Notes under the pieces: generated by a model
Database searches by the model: none
The model's input: only the letters and a program-made list of their open reading frames with translations
Told to the model about the DNA's origin: nothing
NCBI GenBank assembly: GCA_033722615.1
Contig: JAWVYQ010000001.1
Span: forward strand, 21-64,020
Length of the DNA stretch: 64,000 bases
Source: Candidatus Promineifilaceae bacterium
GTDB taxonomy: Bacteria > Chloroflexota > Anaerolineae > Promineifilales > Promineifilaceae
Direction: 5' to 3'
Program-made: the position numbers and the translations under genes
Part shown: positions 42,748 through 53,380 of the stretch, piece after piece
Layout of the letters: each line of letters opens with the position of its first letter
How positions within the stretch are numbered: the first letter of the stretch is position 1

Positions 42748-43704
42748 TTAGCTATCGATCCATCCTGCGTCCCGGGCTTGCTCCCGGATTAGTTCGGCCA
42801 GTTGCTCGATGAAGAGGGGGTCGGTGTTCAGCGCGGGCGGCCGTTCCAGCTGGACGCCGTGCTTCTCGGCAACTTCCTGTGCCTGGATGTCGATGTCGTA
42901 CAAGATCTCCACGTGGTCGGAGACGAAGCCCACGGGCACGCTGACCACCTTCGTTACCCCCTGGCGGGCCAGCTCTGGAATATGCTCCTCAATTTGTGGC
43001 CCCAGCCACGGTTCCGGGCTGCGCCCGGCTGACTGGTAACTCCACGACCATTGGTCCGCGCGCAGTCCGGCCTCCTCGGCCACCAGCCGCGCCGTCTCCC
43101 GCAACTGCTCGTCGTACGGGTCGCCCATCTTCATGATGCGCACCGGCAGGCTGTGGGCGCTGAAGATGACGTGCACGTCCTCTCGTTCCTGCTCTGGCCA
43201 GCGCTCTAATCCCTGGCGGACGCGGTTGGCCAGCGCTTCGATATACTTCGGCGCGTCGTGGTAGCTGGCGATGTGCTCAAAGTGGATGTCGCCGTGATAC
43301 ATCTCCAACCCATCTTCAATCTTCTTCTGGTACTTGGCCACGCTCATCTTGCTGTAGTGGGGGGCCAGAACAAGGCTGACGGCGTGGCTGATGCCGTCGT
43401 CGATCATTTCGGCGACGGTTTCTTCGATCCAGGGCGCCCAGTGGCGCATCCCCAGATAGCAGCGGAATCGTTCGTCCAGTTGCTCGTCAATGGCCGCAAC
43501 CTGTTGCTGCGTGATCGCCAGCAGCGGCGACTTGCCGCCGATCTGCTCGTAATTGTGCGTGATCTCGTGAAGTACGGCCGGCGTCGTCACCCGCCCGCTG
43601 CGTATGTCGGCCAGATAGCCCGGTATCTCCTTCAGAGAGTTTGGCCCTCCGTAGGCCATGATCAGCACCCCAATCGGATAGTGAAAGCCGGTTGATTCGG
43701 TCAT
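42748..43704 (-). CDS. hemH: ferrochelatase (coproporphyrin ferrochelatase type, inferred from context)
   Basis: GVLIMAYGGPNSL, SAHSLP and the HVEILYDID region are ferrochelatase-family motifs. Confidence 0.9.
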   Translation of the reverse strand: MTESTGFHYPIGVLIMAYGGPNSLKEIPGYLADIRSGRVTTPAVLHEITHNYEQIGGKSPLLAITQQQVAAIDEQLDERFRCYLGMRHWAPWIEETVAEMIDDGISHAVSLVLAPHYSKMSVAKYQKKIEDGLEMYHGDIHFEHIASYHDAPKYIEALANRVRQGLERWPEQEREDVHVIFSAHSLPVRIMKMGDPYDEQLRETARLVAEEAGLRADQWSWSYQSAGRSPEPWLGPQIEEHIPELARQGVTKVVSVPVGFVSDHVEILYDIDIQAQEVAEKHGVQLERPPALNTDPLFIEQLAELIREQARDAGWIDS

Positions 43705-43854: not shown

Positions 43855-44910
43855 TTATTTGCTCGTCTGCTCGTGGACGTACTCGACCATTCTCCTTACG
43901 TTTTCTGTGGGCGTCGTCTTGTGGATGCCGTGGCCCAGATTGAAGATGTGGCCCGGCCGGCCGCCGGCCTGTTCCAGTACCTGATCGATGCGATATTGTA
44001 GCTCTCGCCAGGGGGCCAATAACGCCAGCGGTTCCAGATTGCCCTGGACGGGCCGGTCGACGCCTGCTTTCTCCCACGCCCAATCCAGCGGCATGCGCCA
44101 GTCGACGCCAACCACGTCGCCGCCGCACACTGCGACTTCGTCCAGGTAGGCGGCCGTTCCCGTGCTGAAGTTGATGACAGGCACCTCGGCTTTATCCAGC
44201 ATCTGGAACAGTTTGCGGTTGGTCGGTTGCACGAAGCGCACGTAATCTTCCTTGCCCAGGGCCAGCCCTGCCCAGGAATCGAACACCTGGAGGGCGGATG
44301 CCCCGGCTTCCACTTGCTGCAGGAGGTAATCGGCCTGTACCGTGGCCAGCTTGTCCATCAGCCGGCGCCAGGCGGCCGGTTCGTTGTACATGAACGCCTT
44401 CGTTTTGGCGTACGTCTTGGATCCGCCTCCCTCAATCGCGTAGCTGGCCAGCGTAAAGGGCGCCCCGGCAAAACCGATGAGGGGAATATCTCGCGGCGCC
44501 AGTTGTTTGACGACCTTCCGGATCGCTTCCAGCGTAGCGCTCAGCATCGTATCGGCGGCCGGCGGCGTGGCCAGCAAGTCGACGTCGTACGGCTCCGAGA
44601 TTGGGTTGAAAATCCGCGGCCCCTCGCCCTTCACAAATTCCAGATCCAGCCCCATTCCGATAAGGGGAGGCAGTATGTCGGCGAAGATAATGGCCGCGTC
44701 CAGGTCGAAGGCTTCGATTGGCTGCATCGTCACTTCGGCCGCCAGTTCCGGCGTGCTGATCACGTCGATCATACTGTGCTGGGCACGGATGGCCCGGTAT
44801 TCGGCCATGTAGCGGCCGGCCTGGCGCATTAGCCAGACGGGCGTGGCGTCTACCGGCAATCCCCGGCAGGCGCGAAGAAAGCGGGACGTGGGTTCTTGCG
44901 AATCGGTCAT
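43855..44910 (-). CDS. hemE: uroporphyrinogen decarboxylase
   Basis: ATG at 44910 overlaps the hemQ stop (ATGA). Motifs PVWLMRQAGRYMAEY, FDSWAG and NLGHGI. Confidence 0.93.
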   Translation of the reverse strand: MTDSQEPTSRFLRACRGLPVDATPVWLMRQAGRYMAEYRAIRAQHSMIDVISTPELAAEVTMQPIEAFDLDAAIIFADILPPLIGMGLDLEFVKGEGPRIFNPISEPYDVDLLATPPAADTMLSATLEAIRKVVKQLAPRDIPLIGFAGAPFTLASYAIEGGGSKTYAKTKAFMYNEPAAWRRLMDKLATVQADYLLQQVEAGASALQVFDSWAGLALGKEDYVRFVQPTNRKLFQMLDKAEVPVINFSTGTAAYLDEVAVCGGDVVGVDWRMPLDWAWEKAGVDRPVQGNLEPLALLAPWRELQYRIDQVLEQAGGRPGHIFNLGHGIHKTTPTENVRRMVEYVHEQTSK

Positions 44911-45641
44911 GTAATCTCCTGTTGCCACACTGCCTTACCCACGAAGAAGGGGCCCAGCTTTTCCAAATGCAGCGAGGTCTGTTTTGTCTTGCGCATGCGC
45001 TGCACGATCAGGGATAGCGGGTACAGCTCCGGTCCGACCAGGCCCACCACGAAATCGTTGTCGTGCTTATCCAATCCGTGGCATGCCAGCCGGATGTCGT
45101 ATCCGTGGCCCGCTCGCCCGAACGCCCGGCCGATGCCCCCGTGCTCCATGAGGATGGTCCGCTGCTCCTCGGCCGAGAGCTGCTCGAAGGAACCGGACCG
45201 ACGCAGTGGATACCAGATAGCCCACGGAAGGTTAGGGCTGGTTACTCGCTCTTTAGGCCGCTCGATGAGTGTGCGGGACAGGTCCTGCTCGTACCCGATG
45301 GAGTAAGTGCGTCCGAGCATCGTGTACTCCGGTTTGGGCGACAATTGGCTGAACGGCGCCCGGTTTAGGAAGCGGCGCACGTCGTCCATGAAATAGTCAG
45401 GGTTTTCGCTAAAAGTCAGCAGCGCCACGCCCTGCGGGTCGTTAATGTCCTCGTAGAGAACGCCGGATATGTCGGCCTGTTTCAGTGCCTCGATCAGCGG
45501 TCCCGAATCGTGGCAATCGCCGTAGGCCAGCAACTGCATGAACAGGCGCCGATCTGCGGAAATGACTTCCCCTTGCTCGCTGCGCCCTTTTTCGCGTATG
45601 TCAACGCCGTCTTCTTCGCGCCTCTGAATGTCTAAAGTCAT
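44907..45641 (-). CDS. hemQ: chlorite dismutase-family protein, probable coproheme decarboxylase
   Basis: ATG at 45641 follows AGAGGAGAT. Cld/HemQ-type C-terminal half reads WYPLRRSGSFEQLSAEEQRTILMEHGGIG...GLDKHDNDFVVGL...VQRMRKTKQT...GPFFVGK. The gene is embedded in the haem cluster. Confidence 0.8.
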   Translation of the reverse strand: MTLDIQRREEDGVDIREKGRSEQGEVISADRRLFMQLLAYGDCHDSGPLIEALKQADISGVLYEDINDPQGVALLTFSENPDYFMDDVRRFLNRAPFSQLSPKPEYTMLGRTYSIGYEQDLSRTLIERPKERVTSPNLPWAIWYPLRRSGSFEQLSAEEQRTILMEHGGIGRAFGRAGHGYDIRLACHGLDKHDNDFVVGLVGPELYPLSLIVQRMRKTKQTSLHLEKLGPFFVGKAVWQQEIT

Positions 45642-46774: not shown

Positions 46775-48523
46775 TTATCCGTCCTCTGCTTCGCGGCCGG
46801 CGATGGCCGTTACCAGACCATCCATCGTGTACTCGTCGGCGACGATGCCCGGCCGCAGCGAAAGCTCCTCTTCCACCGTTCCGGCCGTGATGGGACCAAT
46901 ACAGGCCACTGTAGCGTCCTGTAGTAAGCGCAACGCCTCCTGGCGGCCGCCCACCAAATCTATGAAATTGCGGACCGTCGACGAACTGGTAAAAGTGATA
47001 ATATCCACGTTCTCTAGCGCGGCAAGGGCCCCACTACTCGGCGTTGCTGGCAGGGTGCGATACGTGGGGATCTCGTCCACGGCCGCGCCTTGTGCTGCCA
47101 GCATCTGGCGCAACGTCTCGCGCGCGATGGCCGCCCGCGGTAATAAAATGGAGAGGCCGGAGACGTCGCCCAACCCCTCGGCAATACGCTCGGCTACAAA
47201 CTCTTCCGGGATGTAGTCCGGCGCCACGCCCTCTTCGGCCAGGGCGTCGCCCGTCGCCGGGCCGATGGCCGCCACGCGCACGCCGTCGAAAAGGGAGTTG
47301 TCAAGCCCTAACGCTTCCACCCGCTCAAAGAAGATGGCCACGCCGTTGACGCTGGTGAAAATAACCCAATCGTAGCGGCCGAGGTCGCCGATGGCCTCGT
47401 CCAGCTTGCTGCTATCTTCCATCGGCCGGATCTGAATGGTGGGAAACAGAATGGGTGTGGCCCCCAATTTCTGCAGGCGTTCCGCCAGTTCTGGCGCCTG
47501 GTGTGGCGGGCGAGTGACGACGATGCGTTGCCCGGCCAGCGGCTTCGGCGCCTTTTTGACCACCGAGACGTCTGGCTCGAGAGCCGCGAGAATGGCCGTC
47601 GCGCCTTGCGCTGTCGCCTCGTGTGCGAGGCGCTCTCCTAGCGCCAGGGCAGCCTCCAGGTCTGCTCCCTCGCTCTCGCTCTCCACCTTGATCACGCGCT
47701 GTCCGTCCGGTGTGGCGATCAATCCTCGTAGGCGTAGGCGGCCGGCGGCCTCCACCGTGGCATAAGCGGCGATGGGAGCGGAACAGCCACCGCCCAGCGC
47801 CTGTAAGAAGCGGCGCTCGGCAGCCGTCGTGCGCCGGGCCCCCTCGCTTTCGATGGCCGCCAGCAGCTCCAGTACGCGTTCGTCGCCGGCGCGACATTGA
47901 ACGGCCAGCGCTGCCTGTCCCGGCGCCGGTAACATCACGGTTGGCGGCAGCCACTCGCTGACTACGTCCGTCAAGTCCAACCGCTCCAGGCCGGCCGCTG
48001 CCAGTACGGCCGCGTCATATTCCCCCTCCAGCGCCTTGCGCACGCGCGTGCCGACGTTGCCCCGGATTGACCTAACTTGCAGGTCGGGGCGTTGGGCCAG
48101 CAACTGGGCCTGGCGGCGCAGGCTGCTCGTGCCCACGACGCTGCCGGCCGGCAGTGTGGAGAGCGTATGCCCGTGACGGGCCACCAGGCCGTCCTGGGCG
48201 TTGGCCCGGTCGGTGATGGCGCCTATTATGAGTCCGGGCGCTTCCTCCACCGGCAAATCTTTGAGGGAATGAACGGCGACGTCGATCTCGCCCTTCCGTA
48301 AGGCCCGCTCAAGCTCGGCCGTGAAAAGCCCCTTACCCCCAATTTCGGGCAGCGGCTTATCAAGGGTTTTGTCCCCCTTGGTGACGAACGGCCGGAGCTC
48401 ACACTTCAAATCAGGCCAGGCGTCCTGCAACAGTTGAACCACGCGCTCCGCCTGCCAGCGCGCCAACCGGGAGGTGCGCGTGCCGACTTTCAGGATTCGG
48501 TCAGGGGAATCGTTCATCCGCAA
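46775..48523 (-). CDS. hemC: fused hydroxymethylbilane synthase / uroporphyrinogen-III synthase
   Basis: The N-terminal ~300 aa are HemC (KVGTRTSRLARWQAE, SIRGNVGTR, GGGCSAPIA). The C-terminal ~260 aa are HemD-like (RIVVTRPPHQAPELAERLQKLGATPILFPTI..., FTSVNGV, FTSSSTV). Confidence 0.88.
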   Translation of the reverse strand: MRMNDSPDRILKVGTRTSRLARWQAERVVQLLQDAWPDLKCELRPFVTKGDKTLDKPLPEIGGKGLFTAELERALRKGEIDVAVHSLKDLPVEEAPGLIIGAITDRANAQDGLVARHGHTLSTLPAGSVVGTSSLRRQAQLLAQRPDLQVRSIRGNVGTRVRKALEGEYDAAVLAAAGLERLDLTDVVSEWLPPTVMLPAPGQAALAVQCRAGDERVLELLAAIESEGARRTTAAERRFLQALGGGCSAPIAAYATVEAAGRLRLRGLIATPDGQRVIKVESESEGADLEAALALGERLAHEATAQGATAILAALEPDVSVVKKAPKPLAGQRIVVTRPPHQAPELAERLQKLGATPILFPTIQIRPMEDSSKLDEAIGDLGRYDWVIFTSVNGVAIFFERVEALGLDNSLFDGVRVAAIGPATGDALAEEGVAPDYIPEEFVAERIAEGLGDVSGLSILLPRAAIARETLRQMLAAQGAAVDEIPTYRTLPATPSSGALAALENVDIITFTSSSTVRNFIDLVGGRQEALRLLQDATVACIGPITAGTVEEELSLRPGIVADEYTMDGLVTAIAGREAEDG

Positions 48524-48585: not shown

Positions 48586-49890
48586 TCAATCTTTGGTAGG
48601 TGGGTTGAGGTCGAACAGATCGCGGACGGTGGCCTCGTAATCGGTTGCCTGGCCATTGGTGGCCTTTTCGCGGAGACGGTTTGTGGGCTCGTGTAGAAGT
48701 TTGTTGACGAGGGAACGCGATAGATGTTGGACGTGCTTCACCGTCTCCGCATCGACGTCGTCCCCGAGGAAGCGCAGCGTGCGCTCCAGTTCTCGCTGGC
48801 GGATGGCCTCTGCCTTCTGGCGCAGGTCAACGATCACGGGCTTAATGGTCAGGGCGCGTATCTCTGCTTCGAGCGACTTGATTTCCTCGGCAATGATCGC
48901 TTCCACCCGGGGGATTTCTTGTTGGCGGGCGGCCAGCGCCTCGTCCAGGTTTTCCTGGAGTTCGTCGATGTCGAACAGGTGGACGCCGGGCACGTTGCTC
49001 ACGTCAGGCTCGACGTCGCGGGGTACGGCGATATCGATGATTACCAGCGGCCGCCCGTTGCGTTGCGCCATCGCCGTCTGCACCGTGGCGGCGTCGATGA
49101 CGGTGTGCGGTGCGGCGGTGGCGCAGATGACGGTGTCGGCCGCGGCCAGCGCCTGTGGCAACTGATTCAATCCGTACGTGCGACCGTTCCACCTGGCTGC
49201 GAGCTTCTCAGCCCGCTCGCGCGAGCGGTTGGCCAGTGCAATGTTGTCGATCTTCCGTTTGCGTAACGCGTTCAGGGCCAGTTGCCCCATCTCTCCAAGT
49301 CCGACGATGAGTACCTCCTGGCCTTCCAGGTTGCCCGCGTATTGCTGGGCCATCGTAATGGCTACCGAACTAACGCTGGCGGGGTTGCTGCTGATGGCCG
49401 TCTCCGTTCGCGCTCTCTTGCCGGTGCGAATGGCGCTGCGAAACAGGGCGCTGAGGACGGGCCCGATGGTGTGTGCCTCCACCGCCTTCATGTAAGCGTC
49501 GTTCACCTGACCCAGAATCTGGGGTTCGCCGAGGACGAGGGAGTCGAGACCGGCCGCCACCCGCGCCAGATGCTTAATGACCTTTCGACCCCGGTAGAAA
49601 TAGAGGTAGTCGTCGAAAGAATCTGGGGCTACAGGATGGATCGAAGCCAGATAGTCGACGAGCAATTGCCGGGCGTTGGTGGCCGGCGCGTCCACGACGG
49701 CGTACAGTTCGATGCGGTTGCACGTGGAGACGAGGGCAATCTCGGCGAGAGCGTCGAAATGGCCGGAGCCATCTTGAACCAAATCTAGCAGGCCATGCTC
49801 TTCGGGCAGGGCGCAACTGATTCGCTCGCGTAGCGCGACGGGCGCAGTGTTATGACTAAGACCGAGACAGACTATCTTTGTCAGGTGCAT
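48586..49890 (-). CDS. hemA: glutamyl-tRNA reductase
   Basis: ATG at 49890 gives MHLTKIVCLGLSHNTAPVALRE. Motifs STCNRIELY and the NADPH-binding VGLGEMG. The start lies inside the last 35 nt of the upstream regulator gene. Confidence 0.9.
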   Translation of the reverse strand: MHLTKIVCLGLSHNTAPVALRERISCALPEEHGLLDLVQDGSGHFDALAEIALVSTCNRIELYAVVDAPATNARQLLVDYLASIHPVAPDSFDDYLYFYRGRKVIKHLARVAAGLDSLVLGEPQILGQVNDAYMKAVEAHTIGPVLSALFRSAIRTGKRARTETAISSNPASVSSVAITMAQQYAGNLEGQEVLIVGLGEMGQLALNALRKRKIDNIALANRSRERAEKLAARWNGRTYGLNQLPQALAAADTVICATAAPHTVIDAATVQTAMAQRNGRPLVIIDIAVPRDVEPDVSNVPGVHLFDIDELQENLDEALAARQQEIPRVEAIIAEEIKSLEAEIRALTIKPVIVDLRQKAEAIRQRELERTLRFLGDDVDAETVKHVQHLSRSLVNKLLHEPTNRLREKATNGQATDYEATVRDLFDLNPPTKD

Positions 49891-50509
49891 CGTATTCCTC
49901 GGCAATGGAGAGGTGGACTGCATTCAAGAGGGTGTTGATTCGTCGCAATAATTGCATGCTGGCTTCAGGCCGGACGTGAGCATTTTCCGGCAAATGAAGG
50001 GCTGTTTCTACCAGCGTGTCGCGGAAGAAGATGGCCGCTCGCAGCGCGTCGGTCAGGCGGAGGTCGGTCTCCAGGGCGATCGTGGCGTACTCTTGGCCGA
50101 TCTGTCTGGCTTGCTCCAGCAGCTGGTCATCATCTTCTTCGCCGGCCAGGAAACGCATCGTCAGCCCCATCAGTTGCTGGCCGAGCCGTCGATGGCGCGC
50201 TCGCCCTTCCTCGTCGAAGTTGGCCAGCCACTTCGTGTCCTGGTGAACGGTGATCTCCTGGCGCGTCTGGGACAACGCCTCGTTGGCCCAAATCTGTTCC
50301 AGGTCGTCCGTATTTTGTAGCCCATGCCGCTCCTCGGCAAACATCATCAGATCGGCAGCGGCAAAGCGACGGTGGCCGCCGGGTGTGAGCATGACGGGAA
50401 TCTCGCCGTTGTCGGCCCACCGACGTAGCGTCGTCGGGTGGACGTTCAGGCGCTCGGCCGCCTTACTCAAGGGTAGCCATTCTTCCATCTGTTGCAACTT
50501 TTCTGGCAT
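49856..50509 (-). CDS. helix-turn-helix (MerR/excisionase-type HTH) regulator with C-terminal helical sensor-like domain
   Basis: N-terminus LSKAAERLNVHPTTLRRWADNGEIPVMLTPGGHRRF is the HTH_17/excisionase-type DNA-binding motif. The ~150-aa helical C-terminal domain belongs to no family I can name. Confidence 0.75.
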   Translation of the reverse strand: MPEKLQQMEEWLPLSKAAERLNVHPTTLRRWADNGEIPVMLTPGGHRRFAAADLMMFAEERHGLQNTDDLEQIWANEALSQTRQEITVHQDTKWLANFDEEGRARHRRLGQQLMGLTMRFLAGEEDDDQLLEQARQIGQEYATIALETDLRLTDALRAAIFFRDTLVETALHLPENAHVRPEASMQLLRRINTLLNAVHLSIAEEYDAPDKDSLSRS

Positions 50510-50528: not shown

Positions 50529-50554
50529 TGCATAAATCTAAGTAAAACTATGCA
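50529..50554. promoter_or_regulatory. palindromic operator-like box TGCATA-N14-TATGCA (haem-cluster motif copy 1)
   Basis: tgcataAAATCTAAGTAAaacTATGCA lies between the consensus promoter (50564-50591) and the regulator start (50509). The core is repeated at 53302-53322. Confidence 0.5.
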
Positions 50555-50563
50555 CTTGTGAAA

Positions 50564-50591
50564 ATTATAGCTTTTCGTCGCGACCTGTCAA
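50564..50591 (-). promoter_or_regulatory. sigma-70-type promoter for the regulator-hemA operon
   Basis: The minus strand reads TTGACA (50586-50591), a 16-nt spacer, then TATAAT (50564-50569). Both hexamers are perfect consensus. The -35 overlaps the hemY stop codon. Confidence 0.65.
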
Positions 50592-52030
50592 GCGATACCG
50601 TCTACCAGTTCATCTACTGTTTGTTGCGCCTGGTGCACACAATCCGGGATGCCGACACCGCGGTAGGGACTGCCGGTGACGTAGACGTGTTGGGGAAGGG
50701 CGGCTTCAATCGCTTCTACCCGTTCCAGATGGCCGACGTCGTACTGGGGGTTGGCGCGGGGCCAGCGGTAGATGCGGTGGAAAATGGGCCGCGCGTCGAT
50801 GCCCAGCAGGGCCTTCAATTCGCTGCGGACGACGGTCACCAGCTCTTCGTCGCCCACTTTCATCATCTGCGGGGTACGCGAGCCCCCGAAAAAGGCCCGC
50901 AGCAGCACGTAGCCGTCCGGCGCTCGCCGATCGAACTTTGTCGAGGTAATGGTGAGGGCGTTGATCGGTCGACGCTCGCTGCGCGGGATGACCAGGCCAA
51001 AGCCGTCCAGCGGCTGGTTGACTTCTTCGGCGCGATAGGCCAGAGAAATCGTGCCCGTGCTCACGTAACGGATGCGACGCAGGCCGCGCGCCGCGTCTGG
51101 GGCGACGTCTCCGACCAACTGCGCGGCGACGTGAGCGGGCACGGCCAGAATAACGGCGTCGGCCGTCAGCGTGTCGCCATCGCTCAGCGCCAGGGTGTAT
51201 CTCCCTTCCTCTCTGATCAGCCCCTTCACCGTCGTTTCCAGTCGGCAATCGCCGCTGAGGCGACTGCGCAGTTCTTCGACCAGTTCCTCCATGCCATCCT
51301 TGAAGGAGATGAACATGGACGGCGCCTGGCGGCCGTTTGAGGAGGGTTGCGGTCGCGACGCCCGCGCGCGGCGGGCGGCTAGCATTCCCTTGATCAGGCT
51401 CCCATGCTCGGCTTCGATCCGGCGGAAGCGCGGAAATGTGGCCATCAGGCTTTGCTTCTCGGCTTCCGCATTGTAGATGCCGGACATTAGCGGCTCGGCG
51501 ATCTTGTCTAGCGCCTCTTCGCCCAAGCGGCGCGTAATGAAATCGGCCAGCGTTTCATCCTCTTCATCTTTTTTGGGAGGGATGAATAGGTCCATGCCCA
51601 TGCGCAGTTTCCCAAGCGGGGAAATGAGCGGGGAGAGGGCAAAGGGCAGGAATTTGGTGGGCACGATAAGCAACACGCCGTCGGGAAGGGGAGTGGGCTT
51701 GCCGTTGTTCAGGACGAACACTTTTCGTTGCTCATCGTTGGTGGGCAGGAACCGGTCCTCCATCCCTAGCTCCCGCGCCAGTTGCAGGGCCCAAGGTTTC
51801 TGGGTGATGAAAGAATCGGGGCCACCCTCGACGATGAACGGTCCGTCGTCGACCACGTCCACACTCTCCGTCTTGATCTTCCCTCCCCAGCGGCCGGAGC
51901 GCTCGAGCAGGGTATAGGTGAGCTCGACGTCCTCCAGGGATACCTGTTGCTGTTGCAGGGTGTAGGCGGCACTGAGGCCCGCGATGCCGCCGCCAACGAT
52001 GGCCACGCGGAATTGCTTCCTTTCCGTCAT
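50588..52030 (-). CDS. hemY: protoporphyrinogen/coproporphyrinogen III oxidase (HemY/CgoX family, FAD-dependent)
   Basis: FAD-binding fold VAIVGGGIAGLSAAYTL and the GGKI..., EGGPDSF and MSGIYNAEAEKQSL regions typical of HemY. The start overlaps the upstream radical-SAM gene stop (ATGA). Confidence 0.88.
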   Translation of the reverse strand: MTERKQFRVAIVGGGIAGLSAAYTLQQQQVSLEDVELTYTLLERSGRWGGKIKTESVDVVDDGPFIVEGGPDSFITQKPWALQLARELGMEDRFLPTNDEQRKVFVLNNGKPTPLPDGVLLIVPTKFLPFALSPLISPLGKLRMGMDLFIPPKKDEEDETLADFITRRLGEEALDKIAEPLMSGIYNAEAEKQSLMATFPRFRRIEAEHGSLIKGMLAARRARASRPQPSSNGRQAPSMFISFKDGMEELVEELRSRLSGDCRLETTVKGLIREEGRYTLALSDGDTLTADAVILAVPAHVAAQLVGDVAPDAARGLRRIRYVSTGTISLAYRAEEVNQPLDGFGLVIPRSERRPINALTITSTKFDRRAPDGYVLLRAFFGGSRTPQMMKVGDEELVTVVRSELKALLGIDARPIFHRIYRWPRANPQYDVGHLERVEAIEAALPQHVYVTGSPYRGVGIPDCVHQAQQTVDELVDGIA

Positions 52031-53205
52031 ACGGCCGCCGCTTCCTCCCGCAGCGAGCGTGGTTGGTAGGTGCAGAAAGGCTCTTCACCCAGATAGTCGC
52101 CCGTCATGCCGTAAGCACGGGCCCGGCAGCCGCTACAAACCCGTTTGAACTCGCAGGCCCCGCACTTGCCGCCCAATAGATCGGGATCGCGCAGTTCGGC
52201 GAATAGCGGCGACTCTTCCCAGATCTCCTGTAACGGCTGGCGGCGCACGTTGCCCGCTTCAAGTGGCAGATAACCGCAGGGGAATACTTCTCCCCGGTGG
52301 CTGATAAAGGTCACGCCCGTTCCTGCCAGGCAGCCCTTGGTCATCGCGTTCATGGCCGTGCTGCCGCCGGGATGGCCCCGGTGCGCGCCGTCGCCGCCGT
52401 GCGGGTGGCCGCCCGCGTGGCGTTGCCGGCGCATGCTCTGTGGCCCCTGGCGAATGATGCCCTGTCGTCGCTCCTCGGCCTGCCGCTGGCGCACGATGCG
52501 GAAGTAGTGGGGGGCACACGTCGCTTTAAGTTCGATCTCTCCTTCCATCTCGGCGTCGTACATCCAGTTGAGTACGTCTTCATATTCGGCCGGCGAAATT
52601 TGCTGGTCGTCTGCGATCTCCACGCCGCACCCGACCGGCACTAGCAGGAAGAGGTGCAGGGCCACGGCGCCCAGCGACTTGGCCAACGCGAGCGTTTCCG
52701 GCATCTGATGGACGTTGTGACGGGCTACCGTCGTATTGATCTGGAAGGGAACGCCCTCCTCGCGCAGCGCTGTGATGCCCTTCACGGCCTGGTCAAAGGC
52801 GCCGCGCCCGCGGAATATGTCGTGGGTGGCGGCGTCGGCCCCGTCGAAGCTGACGCTAACGCGTCGAATGCCAGCTGCTTTAATCTTTTTCGCGACGCCC
52901 GCGTCGATCATCGTGCCGTTTGTGGCCAGGGCCACGATGATGTCCAGGTCGGTCGCGTGGCGGGCGATCTCGAAAATATCTCCGCGGAAAAGCGGTTCGC
53001 CGCCGGAAAGCACAAGAATGGGACGGGCGAATGACGCGATCTGCTCGACCATCTCCAGCGATTCGGCCGTCGTCAGATCGTGCGGCAACAACTGGTCGGC
53101 AATCGTTATGCGCCGACAGTGGATGCAGTTCAGGTTACACCCGGCCGTGGTTTCCCAGAAGATGAGGCGAGGAGGCGGATAAGCGGTGGCGTCGTCTTTT
53201 ATCAT
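52027..53205 (-). CDS. radical SAM/SPASM-domain protein, AhbD/NirJ-like
   Basis: CNLNCIHC radical-SAM cluster motif and GGEPL. The C-terminal SPASM-type Cys pattern is ATCAPHY...GCLAGTGVTFISHRGEVFPCGYL...GKCGACEFKRVCSGCRARAY...EPFC. Confidence 0.8.
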   Translation of the reverse strand: MIKDDATAYPPPRLIFWETTAGCNLNCIHCRRITIADQLLPHDLTTAESLEMVEQIASFARPILVLSGGEPLFRGDIFEIARHATDLDIIVALATNGTMIDAGVAKKIKAAGIRRVSVSFDGADAATHDIFRGRGAFDQAVKGITALREEGVPFQINTTVARHNVHQMPETLALAKSLGAVALHLFLLVPVGCGVEIADDQQISPAEYEDVLNWMYDAEMEGEIELKATCAPHYFRIVRQRQAEERRQGIIRQGPQSMRRQRHAGGHPHGGDGAHRGHPGGSTAMNAMTKGCLAGTGVTFISHRGEVFPCGYLPLEAGNVRRQPLQEIWEESPLFAELRDPDLLGGKCGACEFKRVCSGCRARAYGMTGDYLGEEPFCTYQPRSLREEAAAV

Positions 53206-53295: not shown

Positions 53296-53322
53296 GCAGA
53301 AAAATCTAAGTAAGGTTATGCA
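53296..53322. promoter_or_regulatory. haem-cluster motif copy 2 (AAATCTAAGTAA-N3-TATGCA)
   Basis: gcagaaAAATCTAAGTAAggtTATGCA matches the box at 50534-50554 at 18 of 21 positions. It lies downstream of a promoter-like TTGCCT-N16-TATAGT and ~95 nt upstream of the radical-SAM start. Confidence 0.45.
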
Positions 53323-53352: not shown

Positions 53353-53380
53353 ACTATACCGGAAGCGGCGCGTCAGGCAA
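53353..53380 (-). promoter_or_regulatory. candidate promoter for the radical-SAM/hemY operon
   Basis: The minus strand reads TTGCCT (53375-53380), a 16-nt spacer, then TATAGT (53353-53358). Confidence 0.45.

Follow-up and report, generated by a model that had tools for sequence, protein, structure and literature searches.

The window analysed here is a 64,000-nucleotide stretch of DNA from a Candidatus Promineifilaceae bacterium of the phylum Chloroflexota. It contains a haem biosynthesis cluster of the coproporphyrin-dependent (CPD) type, at the head of which lies a gene for a 392-amino acid (aa) radical S-adenosylmethionine (SAM) protein. Judged from its sequence, this protein is most probably a coproheme decarboxylase of the AhbD type. 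Its open reading frame (ORF), described in the initial annotation as carrying a CxxxCxxC motif and a SPASM-type cysteine pattern, is present at the coordinates in Table 1 and Pfam agrees with the description (Radical_SAM, 93.8 bits; SPASM, 37.6 bits). Downstream on the same strand follow hemY, a gene encoding a helix-turn-helix (HTH) protein, hemA, hemC-hemD, hemB, a Cld-like gene, hemE, hemH and hemL. The TGA stop codon of the AhbD-like gene and the ATG start codon of hemY share the tetranucleotide ATGA at 52027-52030, so the overlap on which the AhbD-like gene had been described as the first gene of an operon with hemY is there, and a GGAGG-like site lies around 13 nucleotides (nt) 5' of this hemY ATG. 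Together with the promoter-like site upstream, the finding of no terminator-like site between 50400 and 53600 fits an operon of the AhbD-like gene and hemY. The hemC-hemD fusion is shared with same-genus genomes, and the two genes are separate on more distant contigs (L008, L010 and L012).

Table 1. Positions of the AhbD-like gene, its sequence elements and related features in the window
Feature	Position in window	Strand	Basis
AhbD-type radical SAM/SPASM gene, 392 aa, predicted O2-independent coproheme decarboxylase (haem b synthase)	52027..53205	-	ORF, TIGR04545 score, tree, AlphaFold2 model
Codons of radical SAM cluster motif C23-x3-C27-x2-C30	53116..53139	-	Translation; Cys invariant in 62 homologues
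SPASM region C292-x17-C310-x37-C348-x2-C351-x5-C357-x2-C360-x17-C378	52072..52332	-	Translation; invariant in 62 homologues
Linker insert, approximately residues 249-287, at the boundary of radical SAM core and SPASM	52345..52461	-	Split TIGR04545 match, alignments, pLDDT
hemY (CgoX-type oxidase)	50588..52030	-	Matches protoporphyrinogen/coproporphyrinogen oxidase models
HTH_17/MerR-type putative haem-cluster regulator	49856..50509	-	Family matches; conserved in related clusters
hemC-hemD fusion, 582-aa ORF	46775-48523		
Divergent ChdC/HemQ-like gene, 244 aa	44907..45641	-	PF06778, profile search against PDB, Foldseek
hemH (ferrochelatase), would supply coproheme as AhbD substrate	42748..43704	-	Family matches
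Promoter-like TTGCCT-16-TATAGT, 5' of the AhbD-like/hemY pair	53353..53380	-	Consensus match only
12-nt core AAATCTAAGTAA in the leader of the AhbD-like/hemY operon	53302..53313	+	Exact-copy search of window

Of the NCBIfam models, AhbD (TIGR04545) gives the 392-aa protein its highest score, at 465.9 bits, followed by TIGR04053 (355.2 bits), NirJ2 (303 bits), NirJ (198 bits) and AhbC (173 bits). It is 47-51% identical to three AhbDs of the same phylum whose identity is verified by their context in ahbC-ahbD-ahbA/B clusters, which carry an AhbC/NirJ1-type radical SAM gene, AhbA/B, precorrin-2 dehydrogenase and cobA-hemD. In a maximum likelihood tree (IQ-TREE, 104 sequences, rooted on context-defined AhbCs), the protein and twelve close relatives form a clade with a Shimodaira-Hasegawa-like approximate likelihood ratio test (SH-aLRT) value of 99. 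This clade sits inside a larger one of 33 sequences (support 97), the tested members of which all match AhbD best. The AhbC outgroup is supported at 100 and TIGR04053-type proteins form a clade of their own (99). The phylogenetic check proposed in the initial annotation therefore places the protein among AhbD-like sequences, apart from both AhbC/NirJ1 and TIGR04053.

AhbDs of methanogens and sulfate reducers share an eight-cysteine motif, CX20-33CX17CX36-37CX2CX5CX2CX17-35C, and in the Methanosarcina barkeri enzyme the ligands of auxiliary cluster AuxI are C223, C256, C274 and C324, and those of AuxII are C312, C315, C321 and C342 (PMC10452713). The C-terminal auxiliary-ligand motif is given as CX2CX5CX2CX17C (PMC10114771, PMC10452713). 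All eight cysteines, C230 included, are found in the 392-aa protein as ligands for two predicted auxiliary 4Fe-4S clusters, in the order C230-x61-C292 and then with spacings of 17, 37, 2, 5, 2 and 17 residues; the C-terminal motif is matched by C348, C351, C357, C360 and C378. The close likeness to AhbD/NirJ that had been proposed is supported by these cysteines and by the best family score. The AlphaFold model of the protein is of high confidence (predicted local distance difference test (pLDDT) 90.6, predicted template modelling score (pTM) 0.89), and in structure it comes closest to the SPASM/Twitch radical SAM enzymes PqqE, SuiB (template modelling (TM) score 0.71), BlsE, SkfB and anSME. 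SuiB is the top structural match of the M. barkeri AhbD model too (PMC10452713).

With hemE, hemY and hemH all in the cluster, the CPD pathway can supply coproheme. In the metagenome-assembled genome (MAG), which is 80% complete, no match was found for AhbA/B (PF17805) or for CobA/uroporphyrinogen methyltransferase (TIGR01469), no AhbC is among the radical SAM proteins detected (the others being a TIGR04053 member, MoaA, a tungsten-cofactor maturase and HemW), and HemW was found but neither HemN nor HemF. Consequently, the sirohaem and protoporphyrin routes are not evident. The initial annotation had held that the rest of the ahb pathway, if present, would indicate a separate route; no other ahb or sirohaem genes were found at this level of completeness, and nor were CgoN (DUF1444) or NrdD. 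The MAG encodes two haem-copper (COX1-type) oxidases and a cytochrome bd, showing that the organism respires O2. The source sample is probably a tidal-flat metagenome.

The second candidate for the last step is the Cld-like gene, which had been noted as HemQ/ChdC and is present at 44907-45641, the most plausible start being the ATG at 45641, which is preceded by a GAGG-rich site. The protein matches PF06778 at 44.7 bits (cutoff 25) and falls far below the NCBIfam HemQ cutoffs. Its similarity to characterised ChdCs is marginal (E-value approximately 1e-3 even with a family profile, and in the C-terminal domain only), and the matches in the PDB are all of ChdC type. Tyr144 (in WYP) and His167 (in EHG) are invariant and align with the catalytic tyrosine and proximal histidine of Corynebacterium diphtheriae ChdC. 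Although the model is of moderate confidence (pLDDT 66.8), the top 30 Foldseek matches are nearly all characterised coproheme decarboxylases (TM 0.57-0.65), which rank ahead of chlorite dismutases. Among themselves, the ChdC-like proteins of Chloroflexota are 62-80% conserved, and they carry a charged N-terminal extension for which disorder is predicted. On the strength of the modelled fold and the aligned Tyr and His, the Cld-like gene looks like a real ChdC. Given the AhbD-type family placement on the one hand, and the ChdC-like fold and Tyr/His pair on the other, the cluster would encode two enzymes of unrelated type that catalyse the same final reaction, and the earlier suggestion of paired enzymes at the end of the CPD pathway is the best reading of the locus.

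Across 73 sampled genomes of the same family, AhbD-like and Cld-like genes occur together in 14, a Cld-like gene only in 12 and an AhbD-like gene only in two (G269 and G254), while 45 have neither. G269 and G254, in which no Cld was detected, may be natural variants of the CPD pathway that use AhbD only, or may reflect assembly gaps. The homologue heads a CPD haem cluster on four long, divergent contigs from Chloroflexota; next comes hemY, hemH or Cld, in some cases overlapping it by 4 nt. As the next gene varies in this way, the tie is to the CPD pathway and not to hemY specifically. Within the genus, the gene order in G000 and G223 is rhomboid, AhbD-like, hemY, HTH, hemA, whereas in G216, G220 and G271 it is rhomboid, hemY, HTH, hemA, with a gap of approximately 85-120 bp. 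This clean presence or absence at the same site indicates that the AhbD-like gene is optional, and that ChdC alone suffices in sister species.

The AhbD-like protein in the window is 75-78% identical to its relatives on L008, L010, L012, L014, L053 and L055, whether the host is of the same genus or far removed. In the same comparisons the neighbouring genes drop in identity with host distance: hemA from 59 to 43%, hemH from 76 to 46% and hemE from 74 to 58%. Such steady identity of the AhbD-like sequence fits strong constraint combined with exchange between lineages, and hints at lateral exchange among Chloroflexota. On another contig (L051:2697-6869), the gene for the AhbD-like protein P0152 has as neighbours a radical SAM gene that could not be classified, a B12-binding radical SAM gene and a gene for a 251-aa protein without a family match. 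The contigs that carry P0122 and P0129 end too soon to reveal neighbouring genes. Sirohaem-route clusters were also seen in other Chloroflexota, on contigs L043, L044 and L046 (of G162, G032 and G097, respectively), with ahbC, ahbD, fused or split ahbA/B, and sirC, plus cobA-hemD on L043; some Chloroflexota with such clusters have small genomes of 1.7-2.7 Mb. Taken with the CPD clusters, these show that both haem routes exist within the phylum.

Several points weigh against reading the protein as an AhbD that completes haem synthesis without O2. The score on TIGR04545 does not reach the equivalog cutoff of 500 bits, the match being split in two by the insert. However, the three context-verified AhbDs also score below 500 (457.5, 490.5 and 479.1 bits), from which it follows that the cutoff is stricter than the family. 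All motif spacings fit except the first, since the 61 residues between C230 and C292 exceed the published 20-33; this is due to the linker insert. Context-verified AhbDs, together with published motifs, anchor the tree, which does not include the characterised AhbDs of Desulfovibrio vulgaris and M. barkeri. All gene absences are provisional, in that they refer to a 3.5-Mb Chloroflexota MAG of the completeness given above. In the literature, we found no enzyme assay for any AhbD from a CPD organism. Finally, HemY-type oxidases are described as O2-dependent, and with such an operon partner and no CgoN found, a fully anoxic CPD route is not accounted for. This weakens the strict version of the proposal, in which the AhbD-type protein is an anaerobic isoenzyme. 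HemY may pass its electrons to something other than O2 in this organism; failing that, AhbD would be of use where O2 or H2O2 is low, and not under complete anoxia.

Other explanations of the locus can be weighed against these data. One possibility is that the gene neighbours haem genes by coincidence and that its product is a SPASM enzyme with an unrelated role, for example a peptide maturase, a haem d1 enzyme of the NirJ2 type or a TIGR04053-type protein. The TIGR04053 and NirJ2 models do match it too, and every one of its family scores, including that for TIGR04053 (cutoff 395), is below the respective cutoff. Nevertheless, the AhbD score is approximately 110 bits higher, the MAG has a separate true TIGR04053 member that lacks C230, C292, C310 and C360, and the gene has kept its position in haem clusters in different lineages and almost never occurs without CPD genes, making an unrelated function barely credible. 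It is also very unlikely that the function has changed, with the enzyme carrying out another oxidative step without O2, as the initial annotation had offered as an alternative. The translational coupling to hemY in this genome would suit such a role, as would the missing O2-independent partner for the HemY step, given that no CgoN, HemN or HemF was found. Yet the link to hemY is not specific, hemH or Cld being the downstream partner in other genomes; the protein keeps all cluster ligands along with its identity to AhbDs of true sirohaem clusters; and as the usual AhbD substrate, coproheme, is made by this pathway, no change of function is needed. We also know of no radical SAM enzyme for the six-electron oxidation of a porphyrinogen. 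The replacement of another oxidative step finds no support.

A further alternative concerns the partner, and would make the AhbD-type enzyme the main or only coproheme decarboxylase, with the Cld-like protein engaged in haem binding, haem delivery or peroxide handling. The marginal similarity to ChdCs, confined to the C-terminal domain and far below the HemQ cutoffs, speaks for this, as do the two genomes with an AhbD-like gene and no Cld detected. It is nonetheless improbable, because hemY and the remaining CPD genes are retained alongside Cld in the 12 family genomes that have no AhbD-like gene, among them three of the same genus with this cluster, and there Cld is needed for the last step. 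The fold search, with coproheme decarboxylases ranked first, and the invariant catalytic tyrosine and proximal histidine count against it as well. The AhbD-type assignment, with ChdC as a parallel enzyme, is preferred over all of these.

Between the radical SAM core and the first cysteine of the SPASM domain, the 392-aa protein has more residues than the AhbD model. The His/Gly/Arg-rich insert noted before the SPASM domain lies here, at approximately residues 259-281. The first half of the insert is conserved in the Chloroflexota family and partly helical (modelled helix 256-264), another modelled helix (233-247) directly precedes the insert, and residues 268-287 are His/Pro/Gly-rich, variable in length and predicted to be disordered (pLDDT below 50). 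His-rich or HPGG-type linkers are seen in the same alignment columns in sirohaem-route Chloroflexota AhbDs and in many library representatives, which rules out that the His-rich insert is unique to this protein. Cys193 (in VPVGCG) is replaced by arginine in sirohaem-route Chloroflexota AhbDs, AhbC and TIGR04053 proteins. This cysteine distinguishes a large AhbD subclade. It was rejected as a sign of linkage to the CPD pathway, because one member of the subclade, P0139, directly follows an AhbC that scores above its cutoff. We regard it as unlikely that the CPD-linked proteins of Chloroflexota are a distinct, mobile AhbD subtype fitted to O2-respiring bacteria, in which the linker and Cys193 would be functional and the enzyme would mainly make haem synthesis independent of H2O2 instead of serving strict anoxia. 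Were this so, the linker and Cys193 may bind coproheme, haem or a metal, or may dock an electron acceptor or a pathway partner.

The sequence AAATCTAAGTAA occurs in exactly two copies in the window, where 0.05 would be expected by chance. The copy in the leader of the AhbD-like/hemY operon is accompanied by a second one at 50534-50545, in the leader of the HTH/hemA operon. This shared putative operator suggests one regulator for both haem operons, which is probably the conserved HTH protein. An HTH_17/MerR-type protein with an uncharacterised C-terminal part of approximately 150 aa is found repeatedly in haem clusters of Chloroflexota (L008, L014 and L052-L055) and is a candidate haem-cluster regulator.

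Compared with known systems, the protein shares with the AhbDs of M. barkeri and D. vulgaris the CX3CX2C motif, the best family match and eight cysteines with the same spacings from x17 onwards. As with the M. barkeri AhbD model, its predicted fold matches SuiB, anSME and PqqE, and coproheme is available in the cell. It differs from these enzymes in the first cysteine spacing, the partly disordered linker, the additional conserved Cys193 and a score just under the cutoff. Unlike AhbD of the sirohaem route, which is the last enzyme there, it is encoded in a CPD cluster, and no ahbA/B/C or sirohaem genes were found. ChdC/HemQ, a copy of which is encoded eight genes downstream in the cluster, is predicted to share its substrate and net reaction, but is a Cld-type haem enzyme that uses H2O2, whereas the AhbD-type protein is a radical SAM enzyme with iron-sulfur clusters, and the two are unrelated in fold and chemistry. 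The TIGR04053 paralogue is approximately 39% identical to the protein and has the same overall architecture; it is set apart by the lack of C193, C230, C292, C310 and C360, the absence of a long linker, its separate clade and its location outside any haem cluster. This paralogue (L002:1396-2559, on contig 27 of G000) scores 443.9 bits, above the TIGR04053 cutoff, has Glu, Ser and Ser at the positions of C230, C310 and C360, and adjoins a divergently oriented SCO1/SenC gene. The same Glu/Ser/Ser pattern of replacement is found in AhbDs of non-methanogenic archaea (Fix et al.).

That the last CPD step is taken by AhbD in some organisms and by ChdC in others has been described (Bryant, Hunter and Warren 2020, PMC7242693), AhbD serving the CPD route is also covered by Layer and colleagues 2022 (PMC10114771), and AhbD is known from CPD organisms without other Ahb enzymes (Chem Rev 2026, PMC13564367). 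The cases in these three reviews resemble the present one in that an AhbD-like enzyme would take the last CPD step without O2, with the other Ahb enzymes missing or, here, not found. They differ in being mainly Gram-positive and in having AhbD or ChdC, whereas here both are encoded in one Chloroflexota cluster, with presence or absence of AhbD within a genus. The pathway variant is already in reviews, and the locus is a clear but ordinary example of it that leaves the known picture of the pathway unchanged.

We propose that the AhbD-type protein would act as a haem b synthase, using SAM, radical chemistry and two auxiliary 4Fe-4S clusters, without O2 or H2O2. It would convert the propionates of rings A and B of coproheme to vinyl groups, giving haem b by way of a monovinyl intermediate, with coproheme coming from the neighbouring HemY and HemH steps of the CPD pathway and not from the sirohaem route. 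Working in parallel with the ChdC of the same cluster, the enzyme would be an optional add-on, the gene for which may be exchanged laterally. Its probable role is to sustain haem formation under a shortage of O2 or H2O2, in an O2-respiring member of the Chloroflexota whose habitat is probably redox-variable sediment. As a whole, we hold this explanation to be the best with good confidence, on the evidence of family placement, cofactor motifs, gene context and distribution, its substrate, activity and relevant condition being deduced; the narrower claim, that the role is specifically that of a backup to ChdC at low O2 or low H2O2, is somewhat favoured.

What the locus adds to earlier descriptions is the occurrence of both enzymes in one Chloroflexota cluster, the presence or absence within a genus, the decoupled conservation and the linker. 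It also exposes a gap, in that the HemY step still seems to require O2. A finish of CPD haem synthesis that is free of O2 and H2O2 is still argued from genome surveys only. The Chloroflexota described here would offer a natural experiment on this point, as AhbD and ChdC are encoded in one set of operons with a shared putative operator, and sister species are told apart only by whether they have the AhbD gene.

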